Below are positions 2,141 to 63,351 of a stretch of DNA of 64,000 bases, in pieces. Position 1 is the stretch's first letter, and every line of letters begins with the position of its first letter. The notes beneath the pieces were generated by a model. The model did no database searches. It saw nothing but the letters and a program-made list of their open reading frames with translations, and was not told the DNA's origin. This DNA is from Candidatus Woesearchaeota archaeon (GTDB lineage Archaea; Nanobdellota; Nanobdellia; Woesearchaeales; DSVV01): the NCBI GenBank assembly GCA_018303325.1, contig JAGVYH010000001.1, forward strand, positions 24,849 through 88,848, written 5' to 3'. A program made the position numbers and the translations under genes.

Positions 2141-3571
2141 ATGGCCAAGATACTTTTTGAACATAAAGGATTAAATTACAAGGTTCCAGGATTACCATAT
2201 GAAAATAAGTTTGAATATGTCCGCCCTATTGTGTTAGATAGTGTTCCAACTATGGATGAACTGGAAAAATTAATTCTTAATTCTGATGTAACAACGTTAG
2301 TCAATCCTTGGACAATTGACGTGTTAAGAGGTTTTAGAGATTATATACCCACTACTTTTATGAGAGTTGCACAAAATATGAATCCTGATGCAATGCAGCA
2401 ATATTTTGGTAGTGATGAAAATTATATTCCGGAGAAAGAAAGAGTCTTGCTTCAATTACAAACAGAAATTGAGGCAAAAGCAGCAACTATTGATGCAGCC
2501 ATTATTCACAAACGAAAAGAATTGGGAACAGTAGTTAACAAAGCTCACATTGCTAATCGTTTATATGTGATAGGCAGATTTTACGGTCATTTAAAAGAAA
2601 GAGAATATCCTTTTTTATTTGGAAATTTATTGGATCCTACAACATGGGATGATGCTCTTTCTCAAATAAAAAGACAATTTATAGAATATATGTTGGAAAT
2701 TCCTGTTGGAAAGAGAAACTATGAGAGGAGAGTACGTAAAATTGATGTGCCAAAGAAAGATATTCAGAAAAGGTTTGTTTATGTTGAATGGCTGAAACAA
2801 AAATTAGGTGATGATTTGGCAGGAGTATTACTTTATGGCTCAGCTGCAAGAACAGATAATCCTGAAGGTTATTCTGACTTTGATAATTGGGTGATGGTGA
2901 GAGATATTGCAAGAGCTCATCAAATTTTAAAGAATACTTGTCCGGCAGTTTATGATGGTAAAGTAATAGAAGCACATAATGATTCAGAACTACCACATGG
3001 AGCCAAGCATTTAGGTATTCATCTTTTCCCTGCAAATGAAGAATATGTAATAAGACATATACGCTTTTTGCATGATCCTAGAGAATTCTTAATGCACACT
3101 AAAGTTTTATTTGGAGAATTCCCTTTCCTTAAAGTTGGTCAGGATGAAGTCATTGAAAGAGGCATATCACAAGCATATATGAAATTAAAAACTATTGCGG
3201 GTTCACTAAACTGGGCATATTTCGCTCCAGAAAGTATTTTGGGTAAACCAAGCTTGTTTGAATTTATAGTTAAAAATGTACGCTTTTTTATTCAGCATTC
3301 ACTTAATGCAACAGAAGGTCCACATTTCAGAGATAAAGATGAATTAAATAGACGGCTTAAAGAGAGAGACCTGCATATTCCGGAATATAAAGAAGACATT
3401 GATTATATTAAAAAATCATTATTATATGCAACTGTTAGTGTTCTGCAACTCCAAAAAGAATTTGTTGATTCAGGAAGAAAACCAAATTTAGATTTCTTAG
3501 TGGATAATCATTTTTATGAATGGAATGATCCTAAAGTAGATAATTGGGAAAGTGCTGCAGCAGATGATTAG
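2141..3571 (+). CDS. Pol-beta superfamily nucleotidyltransferase-domain protein with an approximately 220-aa N-terminal extension of unknown function
   Basis: GS…D.D signature LLYGSAARTDNPEGYSDFDNW. I recognise no other domains. Confidence 0.5.
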   Translation: MAKILFEHKGLNYKVPGLPYENKFEYVRPIVLDSVPTMDELEKLILNSDVTTLVNPWTIDVLRGFRDYIPTTFMRVAQNMNPDAMQQYFGSDENYIPEKERVLLQLQTEIEAKAATIDAAIIHKRKELGTVVNKAHIANRLYVIGRFYGHLKEREYPFLFGNLLDPTTWDDALSQIKRQFIEYMLEIPVGKRNYERRVRKIDVPKKDIQKRFVYVEWLKQKLGDDLAGVLLYGSAARTDNPEGYSDFDNWVMVRDIARAHQILKNTCPAVYDGKVIEAHNDSELPHGAKHLGIHLFPANEEYVIRHIRFLHDPREFLMHTKVLFGEFPFLKVGQDEVIERGISQAYMKLKTIAGSLNWAYFAPESILGKPSLFEFIVKNVRFFIQHSLNATEGPHFRDKDELNRRLKERDLHIPEYKEDIDYIKKSLLYATVSVLQLQKEFVDSGRKPNLDFLVDNHFYEWNDPKVDNWESAAADD

Positions 3572-3937
3572 TAAGTAATAAGTCTGCCAGTCAGCTTTGG
3601 CGAAAACGCGAAAAATGATGCGTAGAAGAACAGCTGAGTTTCCAATTGTTTTCGCTTCCTTTATAGTCTTACGAGACAAAACAGCAAAGCTGACAAATTG
3701 TTTCAGATTAAATGAAAAATTAGTTATTAAGTCAATATTTAATCTGAAACAACAGAATTCCACCAATCATTGGTTTATGGTCGGGTGGGATTCTGTGTGC
3801 TCAAGAACCACCGCTTGATTGGTGTAATTCTGAGCATCAAGAACCACATATTTGTTGTATCATTGTACCATCATGCTACTTAAACCAAAATAGATAAATC
3901 GAGTTAAATTTACAATAGAGGCAGACTTATTACTTAC
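3571..3937. repeat. Composite hairpin element bounded by an 18-bp perfect inverted repeat (gtaagtaataagtctgcc at 3571-3588, reverse complement at 3920-3937). It contains an imperfect-palindrome module at 3582-3700 (family P) and a 'cagattaaatg…atttaatctg' hairpin module.
   Basis: Both arms are read directly from the sequence. The internal module matches the one at 34367-34500 and, in part, 24162-24190. Confidence 0.7.
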
Positions 3938-3964: not shown

Positions 3965-4936
3965 CTATTGTTGAATATGTGTTAAAAGAGATTTAACTAA
4001 GCCTATTTTCTGTTTTACAATTGTTTCTGCAAGTAGTAATAATGATTTATCTGTTTTAGGAATAGGCACAAAACAAGTATCAACACCGATTTCTTTTAAT
4101 TTAGTATAAACCTTATTGGGATCACCCTTAATTCTTAATGGGTTAAAATTTAAGTCAAATAAGCTTTCTTCATAACCCATGACAAAGTAAATTAAATGAT
4201 GATTAGGAAAAAGAGATTTGAAAGGGTCAAAAACTCTTTCTTCAATTCCATTAGTATGCCTGTTTTTGTTCCATGAATGAAGATTAAATTCTCTCTTAGT
4301 AAATGATTCGCCAATTAAGAGGTATCTCTCATCACCTACGTGAAGATATCCTAACCCATCTATTTCTGTAGAAATCAAACCAAATCGTTCTTGTTGGTAT
4401 GAGGTTACAACATCTGTATGCGTATCTTTCTTTAAGATAACAAAATTACTTACTCCTTTGAAACGAAGAAGATAATCATTATTAAAGCGAGCGATATAAC
4501 CTTTACCTCGATGTTTACGAGGTTCTCTTAAAACACCACTTATTATGTTATTCTCTTTAAAAGAAGATTCTCCTTTTTTTTCTTCTTCATAATGGGAAAC
4601 AACCTGTAAAAAATATTCCATAAGTAAAGAGAGCATTCTTTCACCCATTACTCCTTTAATTCCTCTAACTAGTTCATCTTCAGGAATATCTTGCTCTTGT
4701 TTCTTTTTAGCCCACCACAAAATATCTGTAGCATCATACAAAATAGTAGTAATCCCACCAATAGTAACACTTACACACTCACCTTCTGATAAGTCATGTA
4801 ATTTAGCTGATGGTAAAAATAAATGTGAAATGCTTAAATAGTCTTTTTCACAAGAATGAGATTCGTCAACCAACGTATCCAATGCAGGACAATATCTTCT
4901 TGGGATATACTCTGCAAAATGGTTCACTGTGTCCAT
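3965..4936 (-). CDS. hypothetical protein
   Basis: A 323-aa ORF convergent with the NTase gene. It has no recognisable motifs. Confidence 0.45.
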   Translation of the reverse strand: MDTVNHFAEYIPRRYCPALDTLVDESHSCEKDYLSISHLFLPSAKLHDLSEGECVSVTIGGITTILYDATDILWWAKKKQEQDIPEDELVRGIKGVMGERMLSLLMEYFLQVVSHYEEEKKGESSFKENNIISGVLREPRKHRGKGYIARFNNDYLLRFKGVSNFVILKKDTHTDVVTSYQQERFGLISTEIDGLGYLHVGDERYLLIGESFTKREFNLHSWNKNRHTNGIEERVFDPFKSLFPNHHLIYFVMGYEESLFDLNFNPLRIKGDPNKVYTKLKEIGVDTCFVPIPKTDKSLLLLAETIVKQKIGLVKSLLTHIQQ

Positions 4937-5039
4937 CTAAACTGCGAATAGTTATGGATATAAAAACATTTCCATTGTTTTTTGCTCTTGTTTTTTCCAA
5001 AAAATAATTTTATAATAAATAGTTATATAGTAAGTAACT

Positions 5040-5400
5040 TAAATTATTGTACATCTCGTGTTACTTACTATATATACTAAAAGTCCTTAGCTTCCGAACA
5101 AAAAACAAGGACTTTTGTATATACAAATGGAATTAGTTTGTTCGAAAACTAATTCCATTTAGTATATAACAAACACAGTAACTTTCAGTAATATAGCAAA
5201 CCACAAACATCTTATCCATTTAGTTGTGGTCTGCTGAATATTCAACCAACAAATTTATACTTAACTATTGGTTGGTTGAATATAACTCGTTGTGTTTGTT
5301 ATATTGAACGAACTAAACAATATTGATAAGTAGTTTTAGTTCGTTAGCTATTCGTGGACTTTAAGTAAATGGATAAAGATATTAAAGTCCACCACTATAT
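5040..5400. repeat. Cluster of at least five different hairpin modules, including a 'tatactaaaagt' double-hairpin element at 5071-5168 and a 'ggactttaa' hairpin at 5353-5398
   Basis: The inverted repeats are read directly. The same module families recur elsewhere in the window. Confidence 0.65.
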
Positions 5401-5429: not shown

Positions 5430-6221
5430 ATGCAAATCTTCAAAAACATTGAAATTATTGACCTCTGCCTATTTCTAACGAAATCAAAAACTTTGGTTAT
5501 TCCAGACGTTCATATTGGATATGAAGAAGCATTAAATAAACAGGGCATTCTTATTCCAAGAACACAGTTTAAAGAAATAATGATTAACATCGAAAAGATA
5601 ATAAAAGAAGTAATATTTAGGTTTAATAGTATTAACCAGATAATAATTCTTGGAGATTTAAAGCATGAATTCGGCAGGATTTCAGAGACAGAATGGAGAC
5701 AGACATTAAGGTTTCTTGATTTTCTTTCTAAATTCTGCAATAACATTATTCTCATCAAAGGAAACCACGATACAATTCTCGGGCCAATTGCAAAAAAAAG
5801 AAATTTAGAGATAGTTGATAATTGTTTAGTTGATGATATACTTTTTGTCCACGGCGACAAAATACCGACAGAAATTTCAAAACAAACAAAAACAATAATT
5901 ATTGGCCACGAACATCCAGCAATATCACTTAAACAAGGTCCACGGGTAGAGAAGTACAAATGTTTTTTGAAAGGCAATTGGATAATGAATAAAAAGATAA
6001 TAAGTAAATTGGAAAAATACGCATTTAAAGAGCAGAGAATATATAATCTGATTGTAATGCCTTCTTTTAATCCGTTAATTGAAGGTACAGACATTCTCAA
6101 AGAAGAGTTATTAAATCCTTTGCTTAAACAAGCAGACATAGGTAAACTCGACGTTTTTATTGTAGGGGATAATGTTTATAATTTCGGAAAGATAAAAGAA
6201 ATAGTTAAACATATGAAATGA
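5430..6221 (+). CDS. SbcD/Mre11-related calcineurin-like metallophosphoesterase (archaeal short form)
   Basis: Metal-binding motifs GDLKHEFG, GNHD and GHEHP. Confidence 0.65.
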   Translation: MQIFKNIEIIDLCLFLTKSKTLVIPDVHIGYEEALNKQGILIPRTQFKEIMINIEKIIKEVIFRFNSINQIIILGDLKHEFGRISETEWRQTLRFLDFLSKFCNNIILIKGNHDTILGPIAKKRNLEIVDNCLVDDILFVHGDKIPTEISKQTKTIIIGHEHPAISLKQGPRVEKYKCFLKGNWIMNKKIISKLEKYAFKEQRIYNLIVMPSFNPLIEGTDILKEELLNPLLKQADIGKLDVFIVGDNVYNFGKIKEIVKHMK

Positions 6222-6286
6222 AAAAATGAATTAATAAAACAAGTTAATAAGATAAATAGAATAAATAATAAAGCAAAAAAACAGGA

Positions 6287-6394
6287 TTACAATGACTTTT
6301 TGACTCTCTTTCTCTTTTCTTTCTTCATTCTCTTACGCTGCCATTTCCATCTCATTTGGCCTTTTTTCTTCCATCTTCTCGAACTTCTTTTCAT
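6287..6394 (-). CDS. Tiny lysine/arginine-rich protein that resembles ribosomal protein L41e (35 aa: MKRSSRRWKKKGQMRWKWQRKRMKKEKRKRVKKSL)
   Basis: I translated it by hand. A GAGGT-like motif lies upstream and the composition resembles L41e. It falls below the ORF-table length cutoff. Confidence 0.35.
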   Translation of the reverse strand: MKRSSRRWKKKGQMRWKWQRKRMKKEKRKRVKKSL

Positions 6395-6561
6395 TTAGCA
6401 TACCTCGGTTGTTAAGTTCTTTGTAAAATCAATCATTAATTGATAATTAGATAAGTGGGTATATAATCTATTTATAAATCTTTTGTTCAACGAAATATTT
6501 ATAAACTCGTATAAAATCTTCAGATTAAAGATTAAAATTAGGGTGATAAGGCTAACTAATC

Positions 6562-6707
6562 GGGCCCGTAGCTTAGCCTGGAGAAATTAAGCTTAAAATA
6601 AGACTATTTCAGGCAATGGAGCACTGCTCTTATATGACTGTGCTGCATACAAAAAATAGCACTCCTATGATAAGCAGGGGTCGTGAGTTCGAATCTCGCC
6701 GGGCCCA
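6562..6707 (+). tRNA. tRNA gene with multiple introns (acceptor GGGCCCG/CGGGCCC, T-arm GTGAG-TTCGAAT-CTCGC). The isotype is not resolved; the anticodon may be UAU.
   Basis: The acceptor and T-arm are canonical. About 70 nt of extra sequence lies between the D-arm and the T-arm, which fits an intron at 37/38 plus a non-canonical intron. Confidence 0.6.
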
Positions 6708-6997
6708 TTTAGATTACATTTAATTAATGACCAGCGAATACTCAGAAACAAGCGGATACTCAGAGAAAAATAGATAATGTGACCGAGCAACGAAGTTGCG
6801 TAGGTCGCATGATTTTTTCCGAGGTTTTGATAAAAAGCTCGTGGGAATCTCGCCGGGCCCATTTAGATTACAGTTAATTAATGGCTAGCGAATACCCAGA
6901 AAAAATAGATTATGTGACCGAGCAACGAAGTTGCGTAGGTCGCATGATTCTTTTCCGAGGTTTTGATAAAAAGCTCGTGGGAATCTCGCCGGGCCCA
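6708..6997 (+). repeat. Two tandem units of about 140 bp. Each ends by recreating the tRNA 3' terminus (gaatctcgccgggccca) with a degenerate T-loop, and each contains a GCAAC-GAA-GTTGC hairpin.
   Basis: Direct comparison of 6719-6861 with 6862-6997. The 17-nt tRNA 3' end occurs three times (6691-6707, 6845-6861, 6981-6997). Confidence 0.7.
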
Positions 6998-7183
6998 TTT
7001 TTAGCTCATTTAGCTTTAAATAGTTAGGTTATAATTAGTTTATACACAATTATATAGTAAGTGACGTAAATTTTTATACAAATCGTGTCACTTACTCTAT
7101 TTGTCGGACATAACAAATGTATAACTATTTATGTCCGACATTATAATAAATTTATATATTACTAATAAAATCATGTTCATATT

Positions 7184-7317
7184 GCCTCGGTAGTGTAGTC
7201 CGGCCCATCATTTTGCCCTTTCGAGTTTTATTGAATAGGCAAAGAAAGGCAAAGACCCGGGTTCAAATATTCCAAAGGAGATCAAATCCTTCGGATTTGA
7301 AAGTCCCGGCCGAGGCA
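7184..7317 (+). tRNA. tRNA with introns, including a 36-nt intron at the T-loop/T-stem junction. The likely anticodon is UUC (Glu), with a 13-nt intron at 37/38.
   Basis: Acceptor GCCTCGG/CCGAGGC plus A. T-arm CCGGG-TTCAAAT-[intron]-CCCGG. Anticodon stem TTGCC/GGCAA with loop CTTTCG|A. Confidence 0.55.
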
Positions 7318-7406
7318 TTTTTTTATGTTATTGGGTTAAAAAAAACATAACTTTTATAAAATAACCCCCTTTTTTAATAAGTAACACATAAATTTGAGGT
7401 TATAAT

Positions 7407-7700
7407 ATGACAAAAAGAATTGGCGGAGCAAGAAGAAAAACAAGACATATATTTATGAAGAGCTATAAGAAAAAAGGTAAATTAAGTCTGACAAAGTATT
7501 TTCAATCATTTGAAGTAAAAGATAGGGTTAAACTTATGACAGAATCCTCTGTTCAAAATGGAATGTATAATAGAAGATTCCATGGAAAAATGGGGAATAT
7601 AATAGGCAAAAGAGGAGAATGCTATAAAGTTGAATTATATGACGGAGAAAAAAGAAAAGTATTAATTGTTCATCCTGTTCATCTTACCAAGATGAATTAA
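7407..7700 (+). CDS. rpl21e: 50S ribosomal protein L21e
   Basis: N-terminus MTKRIGGARRKTRHIF…, the size (97 aa), and its position upstream of rpoF. Confidence 0.85.
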   Translation: MTKRIGGARRKTRHIFMKSYKKKGKLSLTKYFQSFEVKDRVKLMTESSVQNGMYNRRFHGKMGNIIGKRGECYKVELYDGEKRKVLIVHPVHLTKMN

Positions 7701-8114: not shown

Positions 8115-8188
8115 TTTGTTTATTTTCTATATTTGTTTTTTAGTTCCTATTTCTTAATATTCTTTTTTTTATTTATAATCCGATTTCC

Positions 8189-8372
8189 CGCTCTCAACTA
8201 GTTTGTGGGACGCAGTCCCCCGTCCCATGAAAAGTTTTTTACGTTTTTTAATCGTTATATAATTCGTTTAAGTTTAAAATAATAAATCCTTAATTAAATC
8301 ATCATGAACGTGTCCAATCAGGTAGGAAATAAAAAAAGAATTATGGAAAGGGTGGCTTCGCCCATGAACTAA
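8189..8372 (+). repeat. GC-hairpin-terminated intergenic element (family E), copy 1
   Basis: Left end cgctctcaac…GGGACgcaGTCCCccgtcccatga. Right end …gtgtccaatcaggtaggaaataaa…ggtggcttcgccc. These match the copies at 41237, 43928(-), 50085, 53537, 55226 and 58781. Confidence 0.75.
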
Positions 8373-8385
8373 TAAAACAGTTTAT

Positions 8386-10497
8386 TTAATAATTCTTAAT
8401 CAAGCTTTCAATAACTTCTTCCTTCCATCCTGCTTTGATTAATGCTGATTTAATTGACTCTTTTGGCATACCTTTCGCAGTATAATATCTGATATAATTT
8501 AATATTTGTTCACGCTCGTTTTTGTCCATAAACATTGCGTTATATTTTGTAAACAATTGCTGGATTGTGGGTTTATCCCAGCCTAAATTAATTAGCTGAA
8601 CAATGACTTGGTCTTTTGTCAGCCCGTTTTCTAACTGTGACTCAACATAATTAACAAAATTCTGTTCTATTGCCGATGTTTGCTGCGCAAGCTGCAGCGT
8701 CATTGGCTGAGCGAACATCGCTGACTGAACATTTTGGGGTTTTGTTTGCTGCATAGCCATATTATTTTGCTGTAAAAAACTAGGAGATTGCATAGAGGTT
8801 GTGTCTTGTTTTGTTGGTTGAGTTGTCTGATTTGTTGTTTGATTTGTTGATTGACTTCTTAATGCAAGCTCTCGTTTATGCATAAAAATTAATGAAGCAA
8901 TTAAACTTCCAATTAAAACAAATATAACAACACCCCACCAGTATGTTTTTCCTTTTGCTAATATGCTTATATTAGGTTGTTTTGTTAACGCTTTTCCAAC
9001 AACACCTTTTTCTGCTCCAAATTTTTGTTCTTGCTTCTGTTGTTTGGATGCAGCCATTTGTTGTGTTTGCTGCTGCGAAAATGTTAATTCTTCTGATGGC
9101 TCTGATGGTTCTAGCGCAGATTCATCATAAGTTTGTTCGCCGGATAAATCATTAATTTCTTCTCCACCAGCTAAACCATCCGAAGCAATTCCTTCAGGAG
9201 GTAACTGTCCTGATAATTGTTGTGTTGATGGAACCGATGGTTGTTGTAAGAAAGGTGGTTGTTGCAATCCTGTTTGTTGAGGTGGTGTTCCTTGTTGTTC
9301 ATCTTCTTCATAATCTTCTTCTTTATATCCTGCAGGCTGGCAAACGCCCATGCTGCTGCATACATAATTTTTTGCGCATTTATGCTGCTCATCGCATTGT
9401 ATACAGATTAAATAGTCTTGACTGCAAAACATTCCTGTTGTGCATTTAGTGTTGTCTGGTTCTCCATTATCATTCATGCAATCAATAATATCTAAATCAC
9501 ATATTCCTTCAAAACATAAAAACCCTTGCTGGCAATCTGCAGGTGTTTGCTCTGAGCAGGATGTTTTGCATTTGCCTGTATTGTCACAAGCAAAACCTGC
9601 TGTGCAGTCTTTTGATTGTGTTGATATGGTACATTCTGGCGTTGGAATAATTGGTGGTGGTGATGGTGAAGGAAGAGTTGAACCTAAAAGATTAGATGCT
9701 GATGCTGGAATAGTTTTGGCTAGTGGTGGTGTAGTTGGCGTGGAAACACATTCGCCTGTTGCTTTATTGCATATTTCATTTTCTGCGCAGTTTAAATCGT
9801 CAGTACATCCTAACGGTGTTTCGCAGATGCCTTCGTTGCATATCTCTCCTTGTGCGCAGGCAGGAACACATTCTGTCGGCGACAGAGGAACAGGAACACA
9901 TACATTATTCTCGCAGGTTTCTGTTTCTTCGCAGGCAGGAACACATTCTGTCGGCGACAGAGGAACAGGAACACATACATTATTCTCGCAGGTTTCTGTT
10001 TCTTTGCACGCAGGAACACATTCTATCGGCGACAGAGTAATTGAAGACACGCATATATTATTCTCGCAAGTTTCTGTTTCTTTGCACGCAGGAACACATT
10101 CTGTCGGCGACAGAGAAATAGGAACACATACATTATTCTCACAGGTTTCTGTTTCTTCGCAGGCAGGTGTACATTCTATTGATTGTGTTACAACATCTTC
10201 AACACATACATTATTCTCGCAATGCTGCCCTTCAATACATTCTGGAGTACAGCCAGTAAGAGTTTGTCCTTGTGTTCCGTCTGTTCCTTCTTTCGGCGCA
10301 TTCTCAGCACATATACTATTCTCGCAGTGCTCATTCACCCCGCAATCTTCATCTGCTTGGCATACTTCTCCAACTGCCTTTCCAAAGAAATCTTGGTTTA
10401 ATGTGCTAAATAAAAAGACAGAACTAACTAGTATAAGGATAATAGTAAGATATATTGCTATTTGCAATGGTTTTGTGAGCTGGATTTCTTTTGGCAT
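8386..10497 (-). CDS. Secreted Cys-rich surface protein: signal/TM, five tandem Cys-rich modules, a Thr/Pro/Gln-rich stalk, a TM helix, and a conserved cytoplasmic tail
   Basis: The N-terminal hydrophobic segment, the repeated ECVPACxETETCENNxCVP modules, the TM YWWGVVIFVLIGSLIASLIF, and a tail homologous to the tails of the 1574-aa and 2260-aa proteins. Confidence 0.7.
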   Translation of the reverse strand: MPKEIQLTKPLQIAIYLTIILILVSSVFLFSTLNQDFFGKAVGEVCQADEDCGVNEHCENSICAENAPKEGTDGTQGQTLTGCTPECIEGQHCENNVCVEDVVTQSIECTPACEETETCENNVCVPISLSPTECVPACKETETCENNICVSSITLSPIECVPACKETETCENNVCVPVPLSPTECVPACEETETCENNVCVPVPLSPTECVPACAQGEICNEGICETPLGCTDDLNCAENEICNKATGECVSTPTTPPLAKTIPASASNLLGSTLPSPSPPPIIPTPECTISTQSKDCTAGFACDNTGKCKTSCSEQTPADCQQGFLCFEGICDLDIIDCMNDNGEPDNTKCTTGMFCSQDYLICIQCDEQHKCAKNYVCSSMGVCQPAGYKEEDYEEDEQQGTPPQQTGLQQPPFLQQPSVPSTQQLSGQLPPEGIASDGLAGGEEINDLSGEQTYDESALEPSEPSEELTFSQQQTQQMAASKQQKQEQKFGAEKGVVGKALTKQPNISILAKGKTYWWGVVIFVLIGSLIASLIFMHKRELALRSQSTNQTTNQTTQPTKQDTTSMQSPSFLQQNNMAMQQTKPQNVQSAMFAQPMTLQLAQQTSAIEQNFVNYVESQLENGLTKDQVIVQLINLGWDKPTIQQLFTKYNAMFMDKNEREQILNYIRYYTAKGMPKESIKSALIKAGWKEEVIESLIKNY
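9790..10210. repeat. Intragenic tandem repeats of about 75 bp (five units) that encode the Cys-rich modules
   Basis: Near-identical DNA units are visible (…ggaacacattctgtcggcgacagaggaacaggaacacatacattattctcgcaggtttctgtttctt…). Confidence 0.8.
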
Positions 10498-10648: not shown

Positions 10649-11185
10649 TTATAGCAATTTCTTCATCTCAAATACAAATCCTTTTGCTCTCTCCAAAGAG
10701 GTTACTGCTTTGCCTTGTTTTGCCTGCTCATCCATTTGGTATTGAAATTTTGAGCGTTTTTCCCGCTCTTCATCAAGAGATTTCAACAAGGCATCTGCTC
10801 GTTGAGACATTAATTCCATTGCATCTTCTTGGGCATTTTCATATTCTTCCAATAGGTTTTTCTTGAGTTTATCTCGAACAAAAACAATAATTGCATCTGC
10901 TGTTACTTTATGGCTAACCTTATCTCCTACTTTATATCCTAAATTCAATAGAACAGCATTGGCAATGTAATACATTGAATAGTATGAAGCAACAATTACC
11001 CAAAGAAAAGGGTGATATTCTTTACTTTCCAATGCAAGAAGTTTTTTGGCTGTTTCCAAAGAAATATCAGCATTCACTATATACATTGCTTTGGCAGTTT
11101 CATTTGTCTGTTTCTTCAGCAGACTATCTTGTAGATACTGCCTTACATTTGACTCCGCTTCTTTAATACGTTTTTGGTCAAGCAT
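10649..11185 (-). CDS. HEPN-domain protein, the toxin-like partner of a HEPN/MNT module
   Basis: Helical protein of about 180 aa. Its start overlaps the stop of the upstream MNT gene by 8 nt. Confidence 0.55.
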   Translation of the reverse strand: MLDQKRIKEAESNVRQYLQDSLLKKQTNETAKAMYIVNADISLETAKKLLALESKEYHPFLWVIVASYYSMYYIANAVLLNLGYKVGDKVSHKVTADAIIVFVRDKLKKNLLEEYENAQEDAMELMSQRADALLKSLDEEREKRSKFQYQMDEQAKQGKAVTSLERAKGFVFEMKKLL

Positions 11186-11753
11186 TTTTCAGTTTATAGT
11201 AAGTTTCAATTCCATACAAGATTATATTATTTTCTATTGCCTCTTGTATTACATTTGAGGTTTTGGAATCTTTCATCCGTATAAATTCCTCTTCTGTAAA
11301 TACCAAAACATGAGTGTTTAGAGGAATTAAAGAGAGAATATCTGAAATTTTAGGTTCAAAATTGCTCTCATTAGATATAAATAAGATGTCAATATCAGAT
11401 GAGGTTGTTTGTTTACCTTTTGAATAAGAACCAAATAAAAGTAAGGTAAACAAACTTGTTTTTACTTTTGACATAATTTCTTTGTAGAGTTGGTTAATAT
11501 TCTTGTTTTTAAGGATGTTTTCTCTTCTTTCATTTTCTGCTTCATAAATTTCAATGCAGTAACACTTTTCGTTTAATTCACATAAAGAGCTTTTTCCTAC
11601 TGTTTGAACTTTGAGAACCTTTTTTTCGATGAGTCTTTGTACTGCGGTATAGGTTATTCTATAATCTGCTTTAATTTGTTTAGCAATTTCTCTAATTGTT
11701 TTTGGTTTTTTGTTTCCGATAAAATGCCTAACTATTTTTAGCTCTGTTTTCAT
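11178..11753 (-). CDS. Minimal nucleotidyltransferase (MNT) with an N-terminal wHTH, the antitoxin-like partner of HEPN
   Basis: Motif LLLFGSYSKGKQTTSSDIDILFIS, an N-terminal HTH (TIREIAKQI…), and overlap with the HEPN gene. Confidence 0.7.
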   Translation of the reverse strand: MKTELKIVRHFIGNKKPKTIREIAKQIKADYRITYTAVQRLIEKKVLKVQTVGKSSLCELNEKCYCIEIYEAENERRENILKNKNINQLYKEIMSKVKTSLFTLLLFGSYSKGKQTTSSDIDILFISNESNFEPKISDILSLIPLNTHVLVFTEEEFIRMKDSKTSNVIQEAIENNIILYGIETYYKLKNA

Positions 11754-32535: not shown

Positions 32536-32665
32536 GACTCACCACTTTTATTAAATTATTCACACTTTTTTATTGATAGATATATCTTTCTATAAGTAAT
32601 ATATAAATCTTTTTTATTTGTTTATATATAATTTTGTTTCTTAATAGTCTTAATTCCGTTTTTTT

Positions 32666-32726
32666 CGCTCTCAATCCTGGGTTCCGCCCACAGCTCGTTT
32701 TAAGGACGAAGTCCACCGTCACATGA
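32666..32726 (+). repeat. Fragment (left end only) of the family-E element
   Basis: cgctctcaat…ggacgaagtccaccgtcacatgaa. Confidence 0.5.
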
Positions 32727-32837
32727 ATATAAGTCTCATTAAAAAGTAAATAATGCAATATATCTCGTTACAAAAAGTGTCAAAATGTGACACTTTTAAA
32801 AACAGAATGGAAAACTTTATATATAATACTATGTTAA

Positions 32838-33443
32838 GTGATAGTAATGGGCAAGATAATTAAGATTTATGAGGCATTACTTAATAGAAAAGAAAAGGTG
32901 TGCCACAGAACAGAAGTAGTTGAAATAATAAAGGAATATAATAAAAACCTAGGCCATATTGACTGTGAAAATACTTTAAAATATCTTTCAAGGCATAATT
33001 ATATAAAAAGAATTTTTCTAAATTTTTATTATGTAAATTCTTTGGATGAAAGAGAAAGGAAGTTTTGCAGCTATGAAGATAAAGAACTTCTGTTTACAGT
33101 ACTTAACGGGCTTGGCATAAAATGGTATGTTGGCCTAAATTCATCTTTATATCTTCTTGGGAAAATATGGCAGACACCAAGTGTTTTATCAATAATTAAT
33201 GATAAAATAAGTGGAAGGAAAAAAATATTAGGTTCGAATGTAAGATTTATGAAAATCAAAAGCAGCCTTATTTTTGGGCTTAAAAAAAATAAAACGAAAC
33301 ATAATATAATTTACTGCTATTCAGATTTAACAAAAACTTATCTTGATTTTGTTTATTTTAAAATATCAAAAAAACAGATAAATACAAAGGAAATAGGAAA
33401 ATATCTTAAGAGGTATCCTACTTGGTTCAAAAAATTAATATAA
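32838..33443 (+). CDS. abiEi: AbiEi-like antitoxin (short form)
   Basis: It sits upstream of an AbiEii gene and overlaps it. Its size and HTH-like N-terminus fit. Confidence 0.5.
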   Translation: MIVMGKIIKIYEALLNRKEKVCHRTEVVEIIKEYNKNLGHIDCENTLKYLSRHNYIKRIFLNFYYVNSLDERERKFCSYEDKELLFTVLNGLGIKWYVGLNSSLYLLGKIWQTPSVLSIINDKISGRKKILGSNVRFMKIKSSLIFGLKKNKTKHNIIYCYSDLTKTYLDFVYFKISKKQINTKEIGKYLKRYPTWFKKLI

Positions 33444-34342
33444 ATAAATATGTTGCAGATGTCAAAAAAAATCTTTGTATAGAAGCCCCGGATGAAATAG
33501 TTGAAAAAGATCTGTTGTTGACTCTGATTCTTGCTGAGTTTGAAAAAAGAAAGTTGGAAAAAGAACTGATATTTAAAGGAGGCACTCTTTTGTCAAGAAA
33601 CTATCTGAACTATCATAGATTTTCAGAAGACTTGGATTTTGTTCATAAGGACTCTAATAAATTGCGTGAATTAAAAAGAAATACGCGTGAAAAAAGAATC
33701 AAACAGTTTATAGATTATTTCGTTCCTGAATTAAAAGAAGTTGCAAATATATTAAATTTAGAATTTAGTACAGACAGAAGCAACACAAGATTTTGCACCA
33801 TTCTGCATGGAAGGGTTATTTATATTTTTAGGATTTATTATTCTGAAAATAATTTTATAAAAATTGAAATAAATTTTGTTGAAAAAATAATACACCCCCC
33901 TAAAAGAGTTTCAATAAAAGCGATAACGGACTTTTTTGATTCAAGAGAACTTTTATTTACTCTTGGCCTGAAAATTGAAAATTTTGTTGTTATGAGTTAT
34001 ACTTTAGAAGAAATAGTTCTCGAAAAATATCGTGCAATACTCACAAGAAGCGAGCTTAAGGAACGCGACCTTTTCGATCTTTTTTTAATAAAAAACATAT
34101 TTAATCCTAATATAAACCAGATAGTAGAAAAGATTAAGTGTTCCTCTTTGATAAGGAGAAATCTTAATATTATGATTAAGGAGAAACTCTTACTTCTTGA
34201 AAAAAATGAATTTTTCAGGAGTGATGAGAAAATAGAATATTTGACTATTATTCAGTATAATAAAATAGATTTTGAAAACTTAAAAGAAAAGATTAAACCA
34301 ATATTAATAGAAATTTGCAAGAAATTCTTGGAAATGTATTAA
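33422..34342 (+). CDS. abiEii: AbiEii-family nucleotidyltransferase toxin
   Basis: Motif IFKGGTLLSRNYLNYHRFSEDLDFV. Confidence 0.75.
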   Translation: MVQKININKYVADVKKNLCIEAPDEIVEKDLLLTLILAEFEKRKLEKELIFKGGTLLSRNYLNYHRFSEDLDFVHKDSNKLRELKRNTREKRIKQFIDYFVPELKEVANILNLEFSTDRSNTRFCTILHGRVIYIFRIYYSENNFIKIEINFVEKIIHPPKRVSIKAITDFFDSRELLFTLGLKIENFVVMSYTLEEIVLEKYRAILTRSELKERDLFDLFLIKNIFNPNINQIVEKIKCSSLIRRNLNIMIKEKLLLLEKNEFFRSDEKIEYLTIIQYNKIDFENLKEKIKPILIEICKKFLEMY

Positions 34343-35105: not shown

Positions 35106-35708
35106 TTATCCAACATAATGCTTCCTCAACAAGTTCAGGAAATGCTCTGCACCATATAAAACTATGTGTTTTTTAAGTAATTCATTGCCGACATTGAATT
35201 TTGCTGGATTTGACAGCATTTCATGCAGGCTTTCATCAAAAGCAATATTAATATCAAGTTTTCCTCTTGCTATTAAAGCATAACGGACTTCTTTTTCAAA
35301 ACTTCCATAATCATACTCTTTAGGAATAAGGAATAATAAGTCTATATCTGACTTTAATTTTGGTTTTTTCACTTGGCTCCCGAAAAGTATGCAGACAAAT
35401 TGTTTATTAATTCTTTTAATATCTTCTGTGACAAGTTTTACAGATGTGTTTTTTTTGCATATATTATTAGTTCTTTCAATTTCAGCGATAATATAATTAG
35501 TATTGTATTTTGCAATGTCAAGCTTCACAACATTGCTTTTCCCAACATTTTTAATAATTACATCACCAGATTTAGCCAGATTTTTAATTGTCATATAAGT
35601 TTGAAAATACTTTTGTTTAAGAATTCTTGCAATATCCATTATAGTCAAGTCTGTAGTTAAATCATCAAATAAACTTTTCAAAACTTTTAATTCATCTTTC
35701 TTTAACAT
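35106..35708 (-). CDS. wHTH-MNT nucleotidyltransferase (solo; antitoxin-like)
   Basis: Motif ILFGSQVKKPKLKSDIDLLFLIP. Its N-terminal HTH resembles that of 11178..11753. Confidence 0.6.
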   Translation of the reverse strand: MLKKDELKVLKSLFDDLTTDLTIMDIARILKQKYFQTYMTIKNLAKSGDVIIKNVGKSNVVKLDIAKYNTNYIIAEIERTNNICKKNTSVKLVTEDIKRINKQFVCILFGSQVKKPKLKSDIDLLFLIPKEYDYGSFEKEVRYALIARGKLDINIAFDESLHEMLSNPAKFNVGNELLKKHIVLYGAEHFLNLLRKHYVG

Positions 35709-35810
35709 TTTATTTTATTTATTTAATATTCTTTCTGTGATAATGTTACAATAAGTATTTTCTTATAAGCGTATAATAAAAAACTTATATATAAATTTTC
35801 TGCTTTTTTT

Positions 35811-35870
35811 GCTCTCAATCATGTTTCACGCTCTAAACTAGTATTATGGCGAAGCCATCTGTCTCATGAA
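35811..35870 (+). repeat. Short hybrid copy of the family-E element (a left-end-like block joined directly to a right-end-like block, ggcgaagccatctgtctcatga)
   Basis: Read directly from the sequence. Confidence 0.45.
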
Positions 35871-35926
35871 GAATTTTTTAAAGTTTTTAAAGGCAGATTT
35901 ATTGTCAAAGAACCAAAATAGCAACT

Positions 35927-41200: not shown

Positions 41201-41236
41201 AAAGTGTATTTGTTTAGTTGGTTAATGTTTTTTGAC

Positions 41237-41470
41237 CGCTCACAACCCGTAACTAGGGACGCAGTCCCCCGTCCTATGAAAAGTTTAAGTTTTTTCGAAG
41301 AGTTTATTAAAAAATTAAATTTCGAAAAACAAACTAAATTAAATCATGAGACGTGTGGCTTCGCCCAGGAACTATAGCAAAGGCACCAAATTTCCGTAAT
41401 TAATAATGCCTTTGCTATATACGTGGACTTTAACAAAAAAGATACGAATATTAAAGTCCACCATTATAAA
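41237..41470 (+). repeat. Family-E element (short form, 41237-41371) followed by a gcaaaggca hairpin and a 'ggactttaa' hairpin (41422-41470)
   Basis: Conserved termini. The 'ggactttaa' hairpin matches those at 5353-5398 and 44045-44092. Confidence 0.75.
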
Positions 41471-41524
41471 CAAAGACTAAATGTTTAAATAGATTAAATG
41501 TTGGTTGAATGACTTAGTATATTT

Positions 41525-43897: not shown

Positions 43898-43927
43898 AAT
43901 ACAAATAATAGTATTCGTTTTTGTTTA

Positions 43928-44157
43928 GTTCCTGGGCGAAGCCACCCGTCTCATGATGAAGTTTAGGTTTTTTTATTTTAAACTTGAACAGTTTATGTAT
44001 AGGCACGGACATTAATTTTTATATATCCTATCCGTGACTATATTCGCGGACTTTAACAAAATTAATACGAATATTAAAGTCCGCCACTATAACGATTAAA
44101 AAAACGTAAAAAACTTTTCATGAGACGGTGGACTGCGTCCCACAAACGTGTTGGGAG
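43928..44157 (-). repeat. Family-E element in inverted orientation, carrying an internal 'ggactttaa' hairpin (44045-44092) and a cacggataggata…gtccgtgcc hairpin
   Basis: The reverse complement gives a left end gtttgtgggacgcagtccaccgtctcatgaaaag and a right end catcatgagacgggtggcttcgcccaggaac. Confidence 0.75.
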
Positions 44158-44249
44158 TAAATAATATGTTACAAAAGCACATAAATTGAAATAATCTATT
44201 GCAAATAGTGATAAGGAAAAGTGGCATCTAAGCACAACAAGGTGAAATA

Positions 44250-50009: not shown

Positions 50010-50084
50010 ATAATGTTGAGAATAATCATTTTTGTGTTTGTTTAACTGAGTTTGCAGATTTCCTGTTTCTTAATATTTTTATTC

Positions 50085-50256
50085 CGCTCTCAACTCGTAA
50101 CTAAGGGCGAAGTCCACCGTCCTATGATTTTAGTTTAGAGTTTTTTAAGAAAGGTGTAATTAAATTAACAGAAAAAACTAAATCATCATATACGTGTCCA
50201 ATCAGGTAGGAAATAAACTAATTAAAATAGTGAGACTGGTGGCTTCGCCCAGGAAC
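50085..50256 (+). repeat. Family-E element
   Basis: ccgctctcaac…gggcgaagtccaccgtcctatga … gtgtccaatcaggtaggaaataaa … ggtggcttcgcccaggaac. Confidence 0.75.
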
Positions 50257-50322
50257 GAAACAAAAAAAAGTTTAAAATTAGTACAATAAAAAATATCAAA
50301 ACTACACAAAACAACAATTCAT

Positions 50323-53492: not shown

Positions 53493-53536
53493 TATAATGT
53501 TGTTTGTATTTGTTTAGCTGATTAATGTTTTTTGAC

Positions 53537-53975
53537 CGCTCTCAACCCGTAACTAGGGACGCAGTCCCCCGTCCTATGATTATTTTTTAAGTTTTTTAAG
53601 AAATGTGTATTATTGCAGATTAAATGAAAAATTTCTTATTAAGTCGTATTTAATCTGCAAGATTATATACTAAAAGTGATTAATTTTCGTACAAATTAAT
53701 CACTTTTGTATATACAAAAGTGTAAAATAATGTTCGATTATTTTACACTTTTAGTATATTTCAGATTAAATGTAATTTAAGTTTGTTAAATAGTATTTAA
53801 TATGAAAAATTGAAAATTTAATCAATTTATTTTAATTTTCAATAAATTTAAATGAGACTATTTTAATTAAATTTACAATAAACTAACAGAAAAAAATAAA
53901 TCATCATATACGTGTCCAATCAGGTAAGAAATAAATAAATTAATAATAGTAAGACATGTGGCTTCGCCCAAGAAC
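53537..53975 (+). repeat. Family-E element, long form (about 440 bp). It carries a 'cagattaaatg…atttaatctg' hairpin and a complete 'tatactaaaagt' double-hairpin module (53674-53759).
   Basis: The termini are conserved with the other copies. The internal modules match 3700-3750 and 62466-62560. Confidence 0.75.
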
Positions 53976-54037
53976 TGAATAAATCTATTTTTTCTGCAAA
54001 ACAATCTATAATATTTATAAATCAACGTCAATTTTCC

Positions 54038-55153: not shown

Positions 55154-55225
55154 GTTTCGGTTTTCACGAGTAGTTATAGAATATATGGATTAAGGTATTT
55201 ATATTTGTTTAGCTGAGGTCTTTTT

Positions 55226-55382
55226 CTGCTCTCCACCTGTTTGTGGGACGCAGTCCACGAATAAAGGTAAGATGGTAATATGGTTTGATGGTCTGAAGGT
55301 ACGACGGAAATAAGTCGCTGCCATCAAACCATCCGACCTTCAAACCTTCTTACCTTTTTTAGTGAACGGGTTGGACATGCCA
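55226..55382 (+). repeat. Family-E element with a long internal hairpin (ggtaagatggtaatatggtttgatggtctgaaggt … accttcaaaccttcttacc)
   Basis: Left end gctctccacctgtttgtgggacgcagtccacg. The internal hairpin is shared with the copy at 58781. Confidence 0.7.
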
Positions 55383-55455
55383 AAAACGAGTAAAAACAAA
55401 TAAGTTTATGTTAATTCACAAGCTTTAAAAAGAAGAAAAAGAAAGATTTTCTTTA

Positions 55456-58735: not shown

Positions 58736-58780
58736 ATTGGTTTTATTGTTCATCTTTTTTTTTGCTCATAGCACGTTATT

Positions 58781-58935
58781 CGCTCTCAACCCGTTTGTGG
58801 GACGCAGTCCCACGTCTCATGAATATAAAAGTAAGAAGGTCTGAAGGTCAGATGGTTTGATTATAACGGCTAATTTCTGTCGCAACATTTCGTAGTACCT
58901 TCTTACCTTCAAACCATCTAACTCTCTTACTTTTA
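58781..58935 (+). repeat. Family-E element with a long internal hairpin (aagtaagaaggtctgaaggtcagatggtttg … caaaccatctaactctcttactt)
   Basis: Left end cgctctcaacccgtttgtgggacgcagtcccacgtctcatgaa. Confidence 0.7.
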
Positions 58936-58976
58936 TTTGTGAATGCGTGACTGTGCCCAATGTTAAACAAATACTG

Positions 58977-61751: not shown

Positions 61752-62465
61752 ATGCAAGCCATCACGTTTCTAAAAGAAATAGAACAGTTTCAGTCTCCTG
61801 TTTTATCATTCAATGATGTAATTAGAATTATAGGAAAAAGCAAAGAATATTCAAGAGTGTATATTCATCGCCTTAAACAAAAGAATATTATAACTGAAAT
61901 AGAAAAAGGGAAATATGCGCTATCTGAAGAGCCCTTTGAGATTGCCTCGAACCTTGTCTTTCCTTCATATATCTCATTCATGGGTGCATATTATATTTAT
62001 GGGTTCACTACACAAATCCCCATAATTGCTCAAATAGTTTGCCAAAACCCTAAAAAAGAAATGAACATAGGGAATATTAAGGTAAACTTTATTTCTTTTA
62101 AGAATAAAAGAATATTTGGTTATAAAAGAGAACGATTTAGAGATAAATATATCTTCATTGCTGAACCAGAAAAGGCCATAATAGATTCTTTATACCTTCC
62201 AAAATACTGCCCAATAAGTGAAAGTTATGAAGCACTTGAAAATAAAGAGTTAGACATAAATAAACTTTTAGAATACGGATTAAGGATGAATTCAATTATA
62301 ACTCTAAAAAGGTTAGGTTATCTTTTGGAACTACATGGTATAGATATTTATGAAAAAGTAAAGCACAAATTAAACAAAAGATATGACTTATTAAATCCAT
62401 TTATGAAAACCTCTAAAAAGAATTCATCAAAGTGGAAACTCAACATAAATGATGTGTTTGAATGA
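61752..62465 (+). CDS. abiEi: AbiEi-like antitoxin
   Basis: It sits upstream of an AbiEii gene. The fold resembles the other AbiEi ORFs (…KAIIDSLYLPKYC…, RLGYLLEL). Confidence 0.55.
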   Translation: MQAITFLKEIEQFQSPVLSFNDVIRIIGKSKEYSRVYIHRLKQKNIITEIEKGKYALSEEPFEIASNLVFPSYISFMGAYYIYGFTTQIPIIAQIVCQNPKKEMNIGNIKVNFISFKNKRIFGYKRERFRDKYIFIAEPEKAIIDSLYLPKYCPISESYEALENKELDINKLLEYGLRMNSIITLKRLGYLLELHGIDIYEKVKHKLNKRYDLLNPFMKTSKKNSSKWKLNINDVFE

Positions 62466-62560
62466 TATATACTAAAAGTCATTAATTTTCGAACAAATTA
62501 ATGACTTTTGTATATACAAAAGACCAAAATAAAGTACGATTATTTTGGTCTTTTAGTATA
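62466..62560. repeat. 'tatactaaaagt' double-hairpin module inserted between abiEi and abiEii
   Basis: tatatactaaaagtcattaattttcgaacaaattaatgacttttgtatatacaaaagaccaaaataaagtacgattattttggtcttttagtata. The stems covary with the copies at 53674 and 5071. Confidence 0.8.
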
Positions 62561-62580
62561 ATCAAAAATGAGGTGTTTGT

Positions 62581-63351
62581 GTGATAATCAAAACTGAACT
62601 TGTAAAATATTGCAATGTATTGGGGTTAAACCTTGGACAAGCAGAGATAGATTATATTCAGCATTTATTCCTTATCTTTTTTTCAAAGCATTCTGGAAAC
62701 AGTTATATATTTAAGGGAGGAACAGCACTACAAAAAGGTTATGGGTTGAACAGATTTAGTATTGACCTTGATTTTACACAAGTCCATGAAAATAATATAA
62801 ATGAGATTATTAATAAAATCAGCAGTGATATAAGTGATTTTGGCTATAAAACAGAAGTAGAGGAAAAGAAAACAATAGGTAAAACATTTATTCTCAAGAT
62901 AAATGGACCATTATACATTGGCACCAAAATGAGTATTTGTAATCTAAAAATTGAGATTAGCCAGCGGGAAAGCATTTTGCTTAAGCCACAATTTAAGGAG
63001 ATTATGCCTAGATACAATGATCTACAACCTTACACCATAATGATCATGGATGAGGAAGAAATACTTGCGGAGAAAGTAAGAGCAATTATGACAAGGAATA
63101 AACCGAGAGATGTGTTTGACTTAGGATTTATTTTAAAAAGAGGGGCTAAATTTCAGTTGGAGTTCATAAATAAAAAATTAGAGTATTATAAAGAGCAATT
63201 TGAGATGAAGAGATTTATTGATAAATTAAAGGAAAAAGAAAATATATGGGAAAAAGAAATGAGAAATTATGTTAAGGACGTTCCAGAGTTCAAAACAATT
63301 TTAAAAGAGATAACGAACGCAATAAATAATAATAAGGATAAATATAAATGA
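62581..63351 (+). CDS. abiEii: AbiEii-family nucleotidyltransferase toxin
   Basis: Motif IFKGGTALQKGYGLNRFSIDLDFT. Confidence 0.75.
   Translation: MIIKTELVKYCNVLGLNLGQAEIDYIQHLFLIFFSKHSGNSYIFKGGTALQKGYGLNRFSIDLDFTQVHENNINEIINKISSDISDFGYKTEVEEKKTIGKTFILKINGPLYIGTKMSICNLKIEISQRESILLKPQFKEIMPRYNDLQPYTIMIMDEEEILAEKVRAIMTRNKPRDVFDLGFILKRGAKFQLEFINKKLEYYKEQFEMKRFIDKLKEKENIWEKEMRNYVKDVPEFKTILKEITNAINNNKDKYK

Follow-up and report, generated by a model that had tools for sequence, protein, structure and literature searches.

An intergenic repeat with conserved, hairpin-bearing ends and a variable interior occurs nine times in the 64,000-nucleotide stretch of archaeal DNA analyzed here (the window; Candidatus Woesearchaeota archaeon, assembly GCA_018303325.1, contig JAGVYH010000001.1, positions 24,849 to 88,848). 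The copies probably represent a new, lineage-specific and modular family of non-autonomous, selfish mobile DNA, ~170–480 bp in length and without open reading frames (ORFs), akin to MITEs (miniature inverted-repeat transposable elements) and to REPINs, the doublets of bacterial repetitive extragenic palindromic (REP) sequences. They multiply within the lineage, are gained and lost between close relatives, and swap their interior and right end. A first-pass annotation of the window, made from the letters alone, had listed nine copies, and both the family and the places and orientations given for it are upheld by alignment and by motif matches controlled for chance.

Structure and Boundaries of the Element

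The copies are labeled c1 to c9 in coordinate order; eight lie on the forward strand and one (c5) on the reverse strand. A left core is present at all nine sites (GCTCnCAAC-nCGTTTGT-GGGAC GCA GTCC-CCGTCyCATGA), and the alignment of the nine left ends displays, in order, a T-run, (C)CGCTCnCAAC, nCGTTTGT (or GTAACTA), GGGAC GCA GTCC(C/A) and CCGTCyCATGA. Over the 62 copies counted in the lineage (see below) the consensus of this core is ttTtttccGCTCnCAACncGTttgTGGGACGCAGTCCacCGTCtcATGAa, with at least 80% identity at most of its ~45 positions. A right end is recognizable in seven of the nine copies: five share a canonical block, aligned as (A)TCATGAGACGnGTGGC TTC GCCCAGGAAC-TAAACAAA, while c8 and c9, contrary to the first-pass annotation, do possess right ends in a diverged form (..AGTGAACGGGTTGGACATGCCAAAAAC.., with the hairpin TTGGAC ATG CCAA). 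With up to three mismatches allowed, the left-block 18-mer GGGACGCAGTCCCCCGTC matches the window at 8207, 32703, 41256, 44141 (reverse strand), 53556 and 58799, against an expectation of 0 from 100 shuffles; the right-block 14-mer GGTGGCTTCGCCCA, with up to two mismatches, matches at 8351, 41354, 43946 (reverse strand), 50238 and 53957, where 0.07 matches are expected.

The units proved to be longer than first annotated. When nine copies of one subfamily were aligned together with their flanks, similarity started at TATTTGTTTAG and stopped at CTAAACAAATA; since this alignment bounds the similarity, the elements extend to these outer termini, which form terminal inverted repeats (TIRs), and c1, for example, covers 8130–8380 instead of 8189–8372. 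The exact terminal motif is found at element ends only. TATTTGTTTAG was also considered as a general gene-end signal and rejected, as its exact or one-mismatch matches are mostly element ends, with a few one-mismatch occurrences elsewhere.

Each element can be described as a long palindrome, imperfect and with a variable interior, whose bounds are TA-TTTGTTTAG ... CTAAACAAA-TA. Close to each end, a small C-GNA-G mini-hairpin precedes a stretch that contains CGTC (CCGTCyCATGA / TCATGrGACGG), and the highly conserved box GCTCnCAAC is an addition of the left arm only. The inner blocks of the two ends are partial inverted repeats of each other, as had been proposed, with 78% complementarity over 23 nt in c5 and 71% over 31 nt in c6. 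A small hairpin with a GNA triloop had been read in both blocks: this is correct for the left one (hp1), whereas in the right one (hp2) the GNA triplet lies on the opposite strand (TTC on the forward strand), so that the GCA/GAA loop is found on the forward strand at the left end and on the reverse strand at the right end. Moreover, the stem of hp1, originally drawn as GGGAC/GTCCC, has only 4 bp (GGAC/GTCC), the putative fifth pair being unpaired in 40 of the 62 copies; hp1 is otherwise almost invariant, its loop being GCA in 54 copies and GAA in 8. An interpretation of the GCTCnCAAC boxes as phased binding sites was discarded, given that more than one box occurs in only 7 of the 62 copies.

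Abundance and Lineage Range

Profiles built from the window copies with nhmmer were used to search 358 kb of non-redundant sequence of the lineage, in which 62 distinct left blocks were found; the copies are thus abundant beyond the window. In the source contig 9 copies were counted in 75 kb, and an extension of the contig by 11 kb added neither further copies nor a transposase. Spacing is fairly even, about one copy every 6–7 kb, and the family accounts for ~3% of the genome, at ~120–170 copies per Mb.

The DNA of the window also occurs on groundwater metagenome contigs, the host being a DPANN archaeon of the Candidatus Woesearchaeota; thiolase and PorA of the window have 100% identity to proteins assigned to Candidatus Woesearchaeota archaeon. 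Among 241 million metagenome records the exact left-block pattern (21 specified bases) was found in 35 stretches, all from four samples of the Joint Genome Institute (JGI), and the matches listed include a single metagenome-assembled genome of GTDB, JACQSP01 (GCA_016205905.1). A scan of a genome collection with GGGACGCAGTCCNNCGTC gave, among the matches listed, four useful loci of JACQSP01, the others being chance matches in high-GC bacteria. Viral contigs searched with four patterns contained no elements, the sole match (L167) being a chance one inside a gene. No copies were present in ~77 kb from relatives whose thiolase is 85–87% or 72% identical, and one diverged copy was found in a relative with 83% PorA identity. 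With many copies in the lineage and none in ~77 kb of relatives, the family is abundant yet restricted to a narrow clade. Full-text literature searches found no description of it. In a census made with MITE-Tracker, a "Woesearchaea genome," which may not be of this lineage, is among the most MITE-dense of archaea, with 105 MITEs/Mb (PMC11602168).

Gain, Loss and Exchange at Orthologous Sites

Orthologous intergenic regions of relatives were compared as the first-pass annotation had suggested, and the sites of c4, c5, c6 and c9 turned out to be empty or otherwise filled. The JACQSP01 contig L163 is syntenic with positions 39–52 kb of the window at ~88% nucleotide identity. The c4 site is empty in L163 (64 bp) and holds a different variant in L165, where GGAACGAAACAAAG is uninterrupted; by comparison, the window copy has an insertion of two additional palindromic modules (41373–41470) that parts GGAAC from the terminal AAACAAAG. 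In L163 the c5 site is occupied by a gene for a 23S-rRNA-intervening-sequence protein inside a foldback, and the c6 site by a HEPN/MNT gene pair. The gap between the PNP and IF-2 genes contains an element in L163 and none in the window, and L166 has no element at the place of c9. Both c4 and c5 belong to an otherwise compact HMGR-HMGCS-thiolase-DUF35 cluster, in which more distant relatives have 8–159 bp or overlapping genes at the same places (8–79 bp or overlapping genes for c5).

Exchange is seen within the elements as well. Between the orthologous copies of L076 and L124 the flanking gene is ~90% and the left arm ~95% identical, but each copy has its own type of interior and right block. 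Identical cargo of the GGTGCTAG foldback type is carried at unlinked loci (L136, L142, L149, L150), and otherwise near-identical copies have mixed right-end hairpin types. The same pair of ~90% identical genomes provides a separate observation: a 0.67-kb region with tRNA-like T-arm sequences in L124 (5730–6399) corresponds to 3.5 kb in L076 (1819–5372) that contain three genes plus an element of the family.

Such exchange is also what would be expected if the repeats were not mobile units at all, but products of recombination, gene conversion and local duplication among AT-rich intergenic palindromes, a form of hairpin debris spread ectopically without a transposase. The left arm is retained while interior and right block are swapped, right-end types are mixed, and no transposase partner has been found. 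However, the copies, which have defined common ends, are spread over dozens of unlinked sites whose flanks are unrelated, insertions break compact operons and even a coding sequence, and recombination alone requires a homologous target already in place at each new site; this explanation is therefore regarded as improbable.

Gene Orientation, Folding and the Conserved Core

Viewed in the orientation of the element, flanking genes are convergent in 16 cases, tandem and co-oriented in 13, tandem and anti-oriented in 16, and divergent in 8. Of the convergent intergenic spaces in these loci 24% contain an element, compared with 17% of the tandem and 15% of the divergent ones. Copies sit in any type of intergenic space and in either orientation relative to genes, and the idea that they mark operon boundaries does not hold as a specific property. 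Neighboring copies on a contig are co-oriented in 23 cases against 6 (p = 0.002), a bias unrelated to gene strand.

Three readings had been offered originally: MITEs, genes for small RNAs, and terminator or insulator elements. The first agrees with the TIRs, the non-coding nature, the 62 copies and the polymorphism of sites, whereas the other two are not supported. Taken together, the latter readings would make the elements transcribed functional RNAs (bidirectional terminators or insulators, 3′-untranslated-region stabilizers or small RNA genes) whose GC hairpins act in RNA. Every copy is indeed intergenic, many begin 1–60 nt past a stop codon, both strands have runs of T5–T9 close to the ends and immediately past CATGA, and the elements fold into stable hairpins; archaeal RNA polymerase is known to terminate at oligo-T. 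On the other side, orientation relative to flanking genes is random, gene 3′ ends are not preferred, and elements are nearly as frequent in promoter-side (divergent) spaces as in convergent ones, for which reason a terminator or 3′-untranslated-region function was rejected. Copies also split compact operons (for example between the thiolase and DUF35 genes), and close relatives have nothing or other content at the orthologous sites. Folding of the whole element gives a single long, imperfect hairpin, and the minimum free energy does not differ between the strands. Because hp1 is nearly invariant and its fifth pair mostly unpaired, it represents conservation of sequence and not covariation, and the long-range CATGA stem varies without compensation. 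Rfam 15, consulted for families such as C/D sRNAs, tRNA-derived RNAs, ribozymes and omega/bridge-type RNAs, gave no match at the gathering score and, at E ≤ 1, three weak ones, none overlapping an element; ARAGORN predicted no tRNA or tmRNA genes. Of the two outcomes that the first-pass annotation had named as refuting it, neither occurred: the termini belong to no known RNA, and copies abound elsewhere in the genome. A C/D-box reading of the right-block ATGATGA/CTGA was rejected for wrong order and spacing and lack of Rfam support. A K-turn in the CATGA stem was likewise dismissed, its sides being perfectly complementary, which leaves no bulge. On balance, a function in RNA has little probability.

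The left core raises a different question. Its one-sided conservation is not predicted by simple neutral decay of transposon copies and could reflect host-level selection or ongoing gene conversion; likewise, the coherent orientation of neighboring copies could equally reflect a polar function at the level of the host. The core might accordingly be a host-selected polar DNA signal bound by a protein and acting in replication, chromosome organization or DNA uptake, like the FtsK-orienting polar sequences and architecture-imparting sequences (KOPS/AIMS), Ter sites, or the DNA uptake and uptake signal sequences (DUS/USS), with cargo gathered alongside and the core kept at each site by selection instead of transposition. 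In 62 copies the core is far better conserved than its surroundings, it is ~95% identical between orthologous copies whose flanking genes are ~90% identical, neighbors are co-oriented regardless of gene strand, and spacing is fairly even; the Neisseria DUS (GCCGTCTGAA) is also found as inverted pairs in intergenic positions. Against this, copies are gained and lost at orthologous sites of close relatives, and the signal would have to be very young because the family is absent at 85–87% thiolase identity. Furthermore, the core is always accompanied by TIRs and usually by an inverted right block, neither of which a simple binding site needs, and GC skew tracks gene strand only, so that replication direction cannot be assigned. 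A host signal is accordingly considered possible but unlikely.

Candidate Mobilizing Enzymes

Smaller palindromic modules insert into the elements. If the elements themselves are mobile DNA, as preferred here, an enzyme supplied in trans would recognize the conserved ends and move them. The mechanism favored is a single-strand, hairpin-recognizing and replication-coupled one of the HUH/Y1 type, as for REPINs and IS200/IS605, on account of the GNA mini-hairpins stable in single-stranded DNA (ssDNA), the asymmetric ends and the co-oriented neighboring copies. C-GNA-G mini-hairpins are exceptionally stable in ssDNA. Members of the IS200/IS605 family such as IS608 and ISDra2 insert into the lagging-strand template (PMC6006769). 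Mobilization by a TA-targeting DDE transposase would be nearly as likely. TA is present at both element ends and around nested modules, a dinucleotide that is ubiquitous in DNA of 33% GC. Effects on neighboring genes, such as those of T-runs on both strands and of split operons, are probably side effects and not the reason for the existence of the elements.

A motif scan for transposases identified one Y1 (IS200-like) gene, at 2775–3242 of contig L138 (PF01797, E 1e-13; 155 aa). It has the arginine decarboxylase gene on one side and the agmatinase gene on the other, and its contig includes two copies of the family. The gene stands solo in region 2660–3620, inserted in an argDC-agmatinase-deoxyhypusine synthase cluster, with a 376-bp GC-rich and highly structured region upstream and a GTAGCGA...TCGCTAC hairpin downstream. 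Its homologs (65–77% identical) are very numerous, mostly on ~1-kb metagenome contigs, and many are named RayT by JGI; among them is an ordinary IS200-like element of 834 bp, present with 99.9% identity at two loci of other Woesearchaeota without the family. These homologs indicate that hairpin-recognizing single-strand transposases are present and active in Woesearchaeota, although a direct link to the family is lacking. The IS200-like element also occurs on a Woesearchaeota contig (L168, 1–12438) with an integrase, type IV secretion system/TraG-like genes, a reverse transcriptase (RVT_1) and an MNT/HEPN-like pair, which resembles a conjugative or mobile island that has integrated into a DPANN genome.

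Several results weigh against mobile DNA moved in this way. The autonomous partner with the same termini that the first-pass annotation proposed to look for was not found: the window encodes no transposase, and neither the related loci (~0.5 Mb) nor the viral contigs contained such an element. The L138 transposase was rejected as that partner, its flanks matching neither the left nor the right profile, and a survey of Y1 (HUH) transposases found in Archaea only the typical IS200 subclass and none of the classes of REP-associated tyrosine transposases (RAYTs; PMC6006769). The terminal hairpins are inverted and TIRs are present, while IS200/IS605 ends carry direct hairpins and lack TIRs, and no ends shared with a tnpA/tnpB element were found, so that a derivation as a palindrome-associated transposable element (PATE) of IS200/IS605 was dismissed; outer TIRs ending in TA look like those of DDE-type MITEs. 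The left core is conserved far beyond the right block and the interior and has no counterpart on the right. Finally, neither a clean target-site duplication nor an exactly alignable empty site was found, the intergenic flanks being too diverged.

Other candidates for the partner were set aside too. The ~0.5 Mb contained no high-identity multi-copy ORF, and multi-copy ORFs taken as insertion sequence (IS) candidates were paralogs of phosphoenolpyruvate-utilizing enzymes and HEPN/MNT pairs; long elements with a gene between terminal motifs were only chance pairs or adjacent elements.

A bolder variant is that the 45-nt left core is the site of a trans-acting, possibly domesticated ssDNA enzyme, or else a polar signal for replication or chromosome organization, and that the cargo, including an insertion in the Elp3 gene described below, is a passenger shuffled by the same machinery. 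It draws on the asymmetry of the core, its near invariance, its GNA mini-hairpin stable in ssDNA and the chromosome-coherent orientation, and is offered as a long shot; were the ssDNA-enzyme site to be real, a vertically inherited replicator system of REPIN/RAYT-like kind would have its first archaeal example.

The Nine Copies in the Window

The annotated genes around the copies agree with the context first assigned to them and encode L21e, RpoF (Rpb4), HMG-CoA reductase, HMGCS, thiolase, DUF35, an HD protein, PUA, DUF371, adenosine deaminase and PorGDAB. Copy c1 (8130–8380, +) lies between the gene for RpoF (Rpb4) and a convergent 703-aa gene and runs from TATTTGTTTTT.. to ..GAACTAATAAAACAG. 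Its left block scores 64 bits against the profile (8155–8232) and its right block 86 bits (8287–8399). The left core (8189–8232, +) reads CCGCTCTCAAC-TAGTTTGT-GGGAC GCA GTCCC-CCGTCCCATGA, with hp1 at 8207–8219. The right block (8300–8372, +) comprises two right ends in tandem, ATCATCATGAACGTGTCCAATCAGGTAGGAAATAAA and then ..GGGTGGCTTCGCCCATGAAC, in which hp2 is GGC TTC GCC (8354–8362); the extra 45-nt right-end module is shared with L135_9800.

Two forward-strand copies consist of a left arm without a right block: c2 (32615–32727), located between divergent genes, carries a pair of GCTCnCAAy boxes and, as its variant of hp1, AGGAC GAA GTCCA, and c3 (35792–35872), which abuts a small Zn-ribbon ORF, has the hp2-type hairpin ATGGC GAA GCCAT in place of hp1. 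Copy c4 (41207–41476, +), with a core element at 41207–41374, separates the HMG-CoA reductase and HMGCS genes, and the inverted c5 (43918–44194, −), with two palindromic modules nested inside, the thiolase and DUF35 genes. Copy c6 (50035–50266, +) lies between a PUA-methyltransferase gene and a convergent HD-domain gene. The longest copy, c7 (53507–53985, +), contains at least four nested palindromic modules, one of them 97% identical to positions 4789–4885 of L163.

Copies c8 and c9 combine a left core and a foldback with a diverged right end. In c8 (55202–55402, +), between the adenosine deaminase gene and porG, the foldback directly follows the left core and its arms consist of tandem 8-nt units (GGTAAGAT repeated 3.4 times and TCAAACCT repeated 3.2 times). 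In c9 (58744–58973, +), located after porB, the cargo is a period-8 foldback.

Cargo Modules and the Elp3 Insertion

Three kinds of interior are distinguished: a short AT-rich hairpin, TATA(G)...(C)TATA palindromes, and foldbacks with arms of tandem units. The interchangeable hairpin modules noted earlier are borne out, and the finding can be extended: the modules are independently mobile. Since they stand alone, flank a gene in L163 and interrupt the Elp3 gene, they are taken to be independent mobile palindromes that nest.

Foldback arms are made of 4–5 tandem units of 7–8 nt (GGTnnGAn, TrGGTGC, TTTGACG, TTnTTCG or GAAAGnTT), and the G/T-rich arm was the 5′ arm in every foldback inspected. 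The arms are only ~70–80% complementary and align in several registers, from which it follows that the unit frame is kept more than the pairing. Examples are found in c8 (55262–55350) and c9 (58826–58936) and in the related loci L159 (8780–8860), L157 (11165–11235), L165 (5260–5348) and L163 (8470–8560). Foldbacks of this type also occur without left or right blocks, right after stop codons, in relatives lacking the family.

The window gene for Elp3 (59621–61540) contains a 99-nt period-8 foldback in frame (59888–59986; units AAAGTTTA/GAAAGCTT ... CTTTCAAG). By comparison with solved Elp3 structures, the protein is longer by 33 residues, which fall exactly between CPH(G) and (K)CIFCPGG and so separate Cys1 from Cys2 in the radical-SAM motif (CPHa[33 aa]GpCIFCPGG); two more insertions relative to these structures lie at ~60254–60376 and ~61205–61264.

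The insert at the c5 site of L163 (4475–5011), between the thiolase and DUF35 genes, comprises the gene for the 23S-rRNA-intervening-sequence protein (PF05635, E 4.5e-29) and a TATA-ended palindrome between period-8 foldback arms, and resembles a gene carried as foldback cargo. Small palindromic modules of the TATA(G)...(C)TATA type, for example TATATACTAAAAGTG... and TATAGCAAAGGCA..., or modules with a GTGGACTTTAA stem, are found at 5004–5173, 41373–41470, 43990–44090, 53600–53780 and 62463–62567 of the window and at 4789–4885 and 7048–7142 of L163. They are both intergenic and inside elements, up to 97% identical between genomes, and present or absent by site.

Other Features of the Region

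Pairs of HEPN/MNT-type nucleotidyltransferase toxin-antitoxin genes and two AbiEii genes are scattered across the region (window 10649–11753, 35106–35708, 33422–34342 and 62581–63351; L163 11264–12463), including the pair at the L163 site corresponding to c6. Positions 6221–7407 are 1.2 kb without a called gene; this segment contains other repeats (6691–7100), an inverted pair of ~115-bp repeats (~6751–6864 and ~6887–7000) and, as its sole Rfam match, a weak tmRNA-like one of 13 bits (6562–6710). Inside the 703-aa gene next to c1 (8386–10497), about four tandem copies of a 75-nt unit (9855–10222) agree at 89% of positions; in a strain variant (L173) the product has 678 aa and not 703, which fits arrays that differ by a single unit.

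Significance of the Family

The host genome is very small and streamlined, as in other DPANN archaea, yet devotes the share given above to a single palindromic repeat family and has several smaller mobile-hairpin families in addition. The family is a well-bounded system in which to study the persistence of selfish or semi-domesticated DNA in reduced genomes and the way in which copies exchange repeat modules. In practical terms, the repeats split conserved operons (HMGCS-thiolase-DUF35), probably break metagenome assemblies, and provide a sensitive lineage marker for this clade of Woesearchaeota. Should the elements be only ordinary MITEs, their description would be a useful annotation and not a discovery.

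Comparison with Known Systems

The elements share with MITEs, such as the Correia/NEMIS elements of Neisseria and archaeal MITEs, a small size, an AT-rich non-coding interior, an intergenic location and a high copy number. They are bounded by TIRs, have TA at both ends, and are polymorphic in their insertion sites (c4, c5, c6, c9 and the PNP/IF-2 gap). They differ in that no parent IS with the same TIRs emerged from the sequences searched for a partner, that the best-conserved part is subterminal and one-sided, and that neighboring copies are co-oriented.

REPs and REPINs, the CGTC-tagged REPs above all, are the closest known concepts, MITEs and BOX elements being close as well, and the likeness raises the question of an archaeal counterpart of the bacterial REPIN/RAYT systems. 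These sequences are high-copy intergenic, short GC-rich palindromes, usually arranged as inverted pairs at distances of 20–100 bp and able to form a larger hairpin together; here hp1 and hp2 are likewise inverted, and the element folds into a single hairpin on either strand. The REP stem has a conserved, unpaired tag beside it, as does CGTC after hp1 and GACG before hp2, and the families are lineage-restricted in both cases. REPINs, however, do not have the outer TIRs, the long asymmetric left arm, the large modular cargo or the archaeal host, and membership among RAYT-associated REPINs was rejected, the L138 Y1 gene not being flanked by repeats of the family. The CGTC REPs, defined by a CGTC tag at the stem end and a CCA-like tail, have no identified transposase either (Di Nocera et al., 2013, PMC3733652). 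Their stems are of 8–9 bp with loops of 4–5 nt, compared with 4–5 bp and 3-nt GNA loops here, and they are mostly arranged head-to-head, whereas tags pointing inward, as in the present elements, correspond to the "TT" arrangement that is rare among them (PMC3733652). Although CGTC stands beside hp1 in most copies, stem, loop and tag direction thus exclude the family from the CGTC REP super-family.

With IS200/IS605 and PATEs the elements have in common subterminal hairpins, asymmetric ends and a strand-coherent orientation, and IS200-type transposases occur in the same organisms. Integron attC sites were excluded, as the right end lacks the GTTGnGAGC that would complement GCTCnCAAC and the neighbors are housekeeping operons, and so were CRISPR or solitary repeats, there being no spaced arrays in any locus with the family.

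In general organization the elements also recall the BOX elements of Streptococcus pneumoniae (boxA-boxB(n)-boxC), which are intergenic, form hairpins and have no identified mobilizer. Both have conserved end modules around variable internal ones; the sequences are unrelated, and BOX repeats one internal unit where several unrelated families of palindromes are found here. Rickettsia palindromic elements and eukaryotic Foldback transposons have no sequence relation to the family, the arms are only ~40 nt here, and hosts and presumably enzymes differ. The likeness to the former lies in a cargo-type palindrome placed in frame in a protein gene (Elp3), and that to the latter in long inverted arms composed of short tandem sub-repeats, which in the present elements are 7–8 nt in length.

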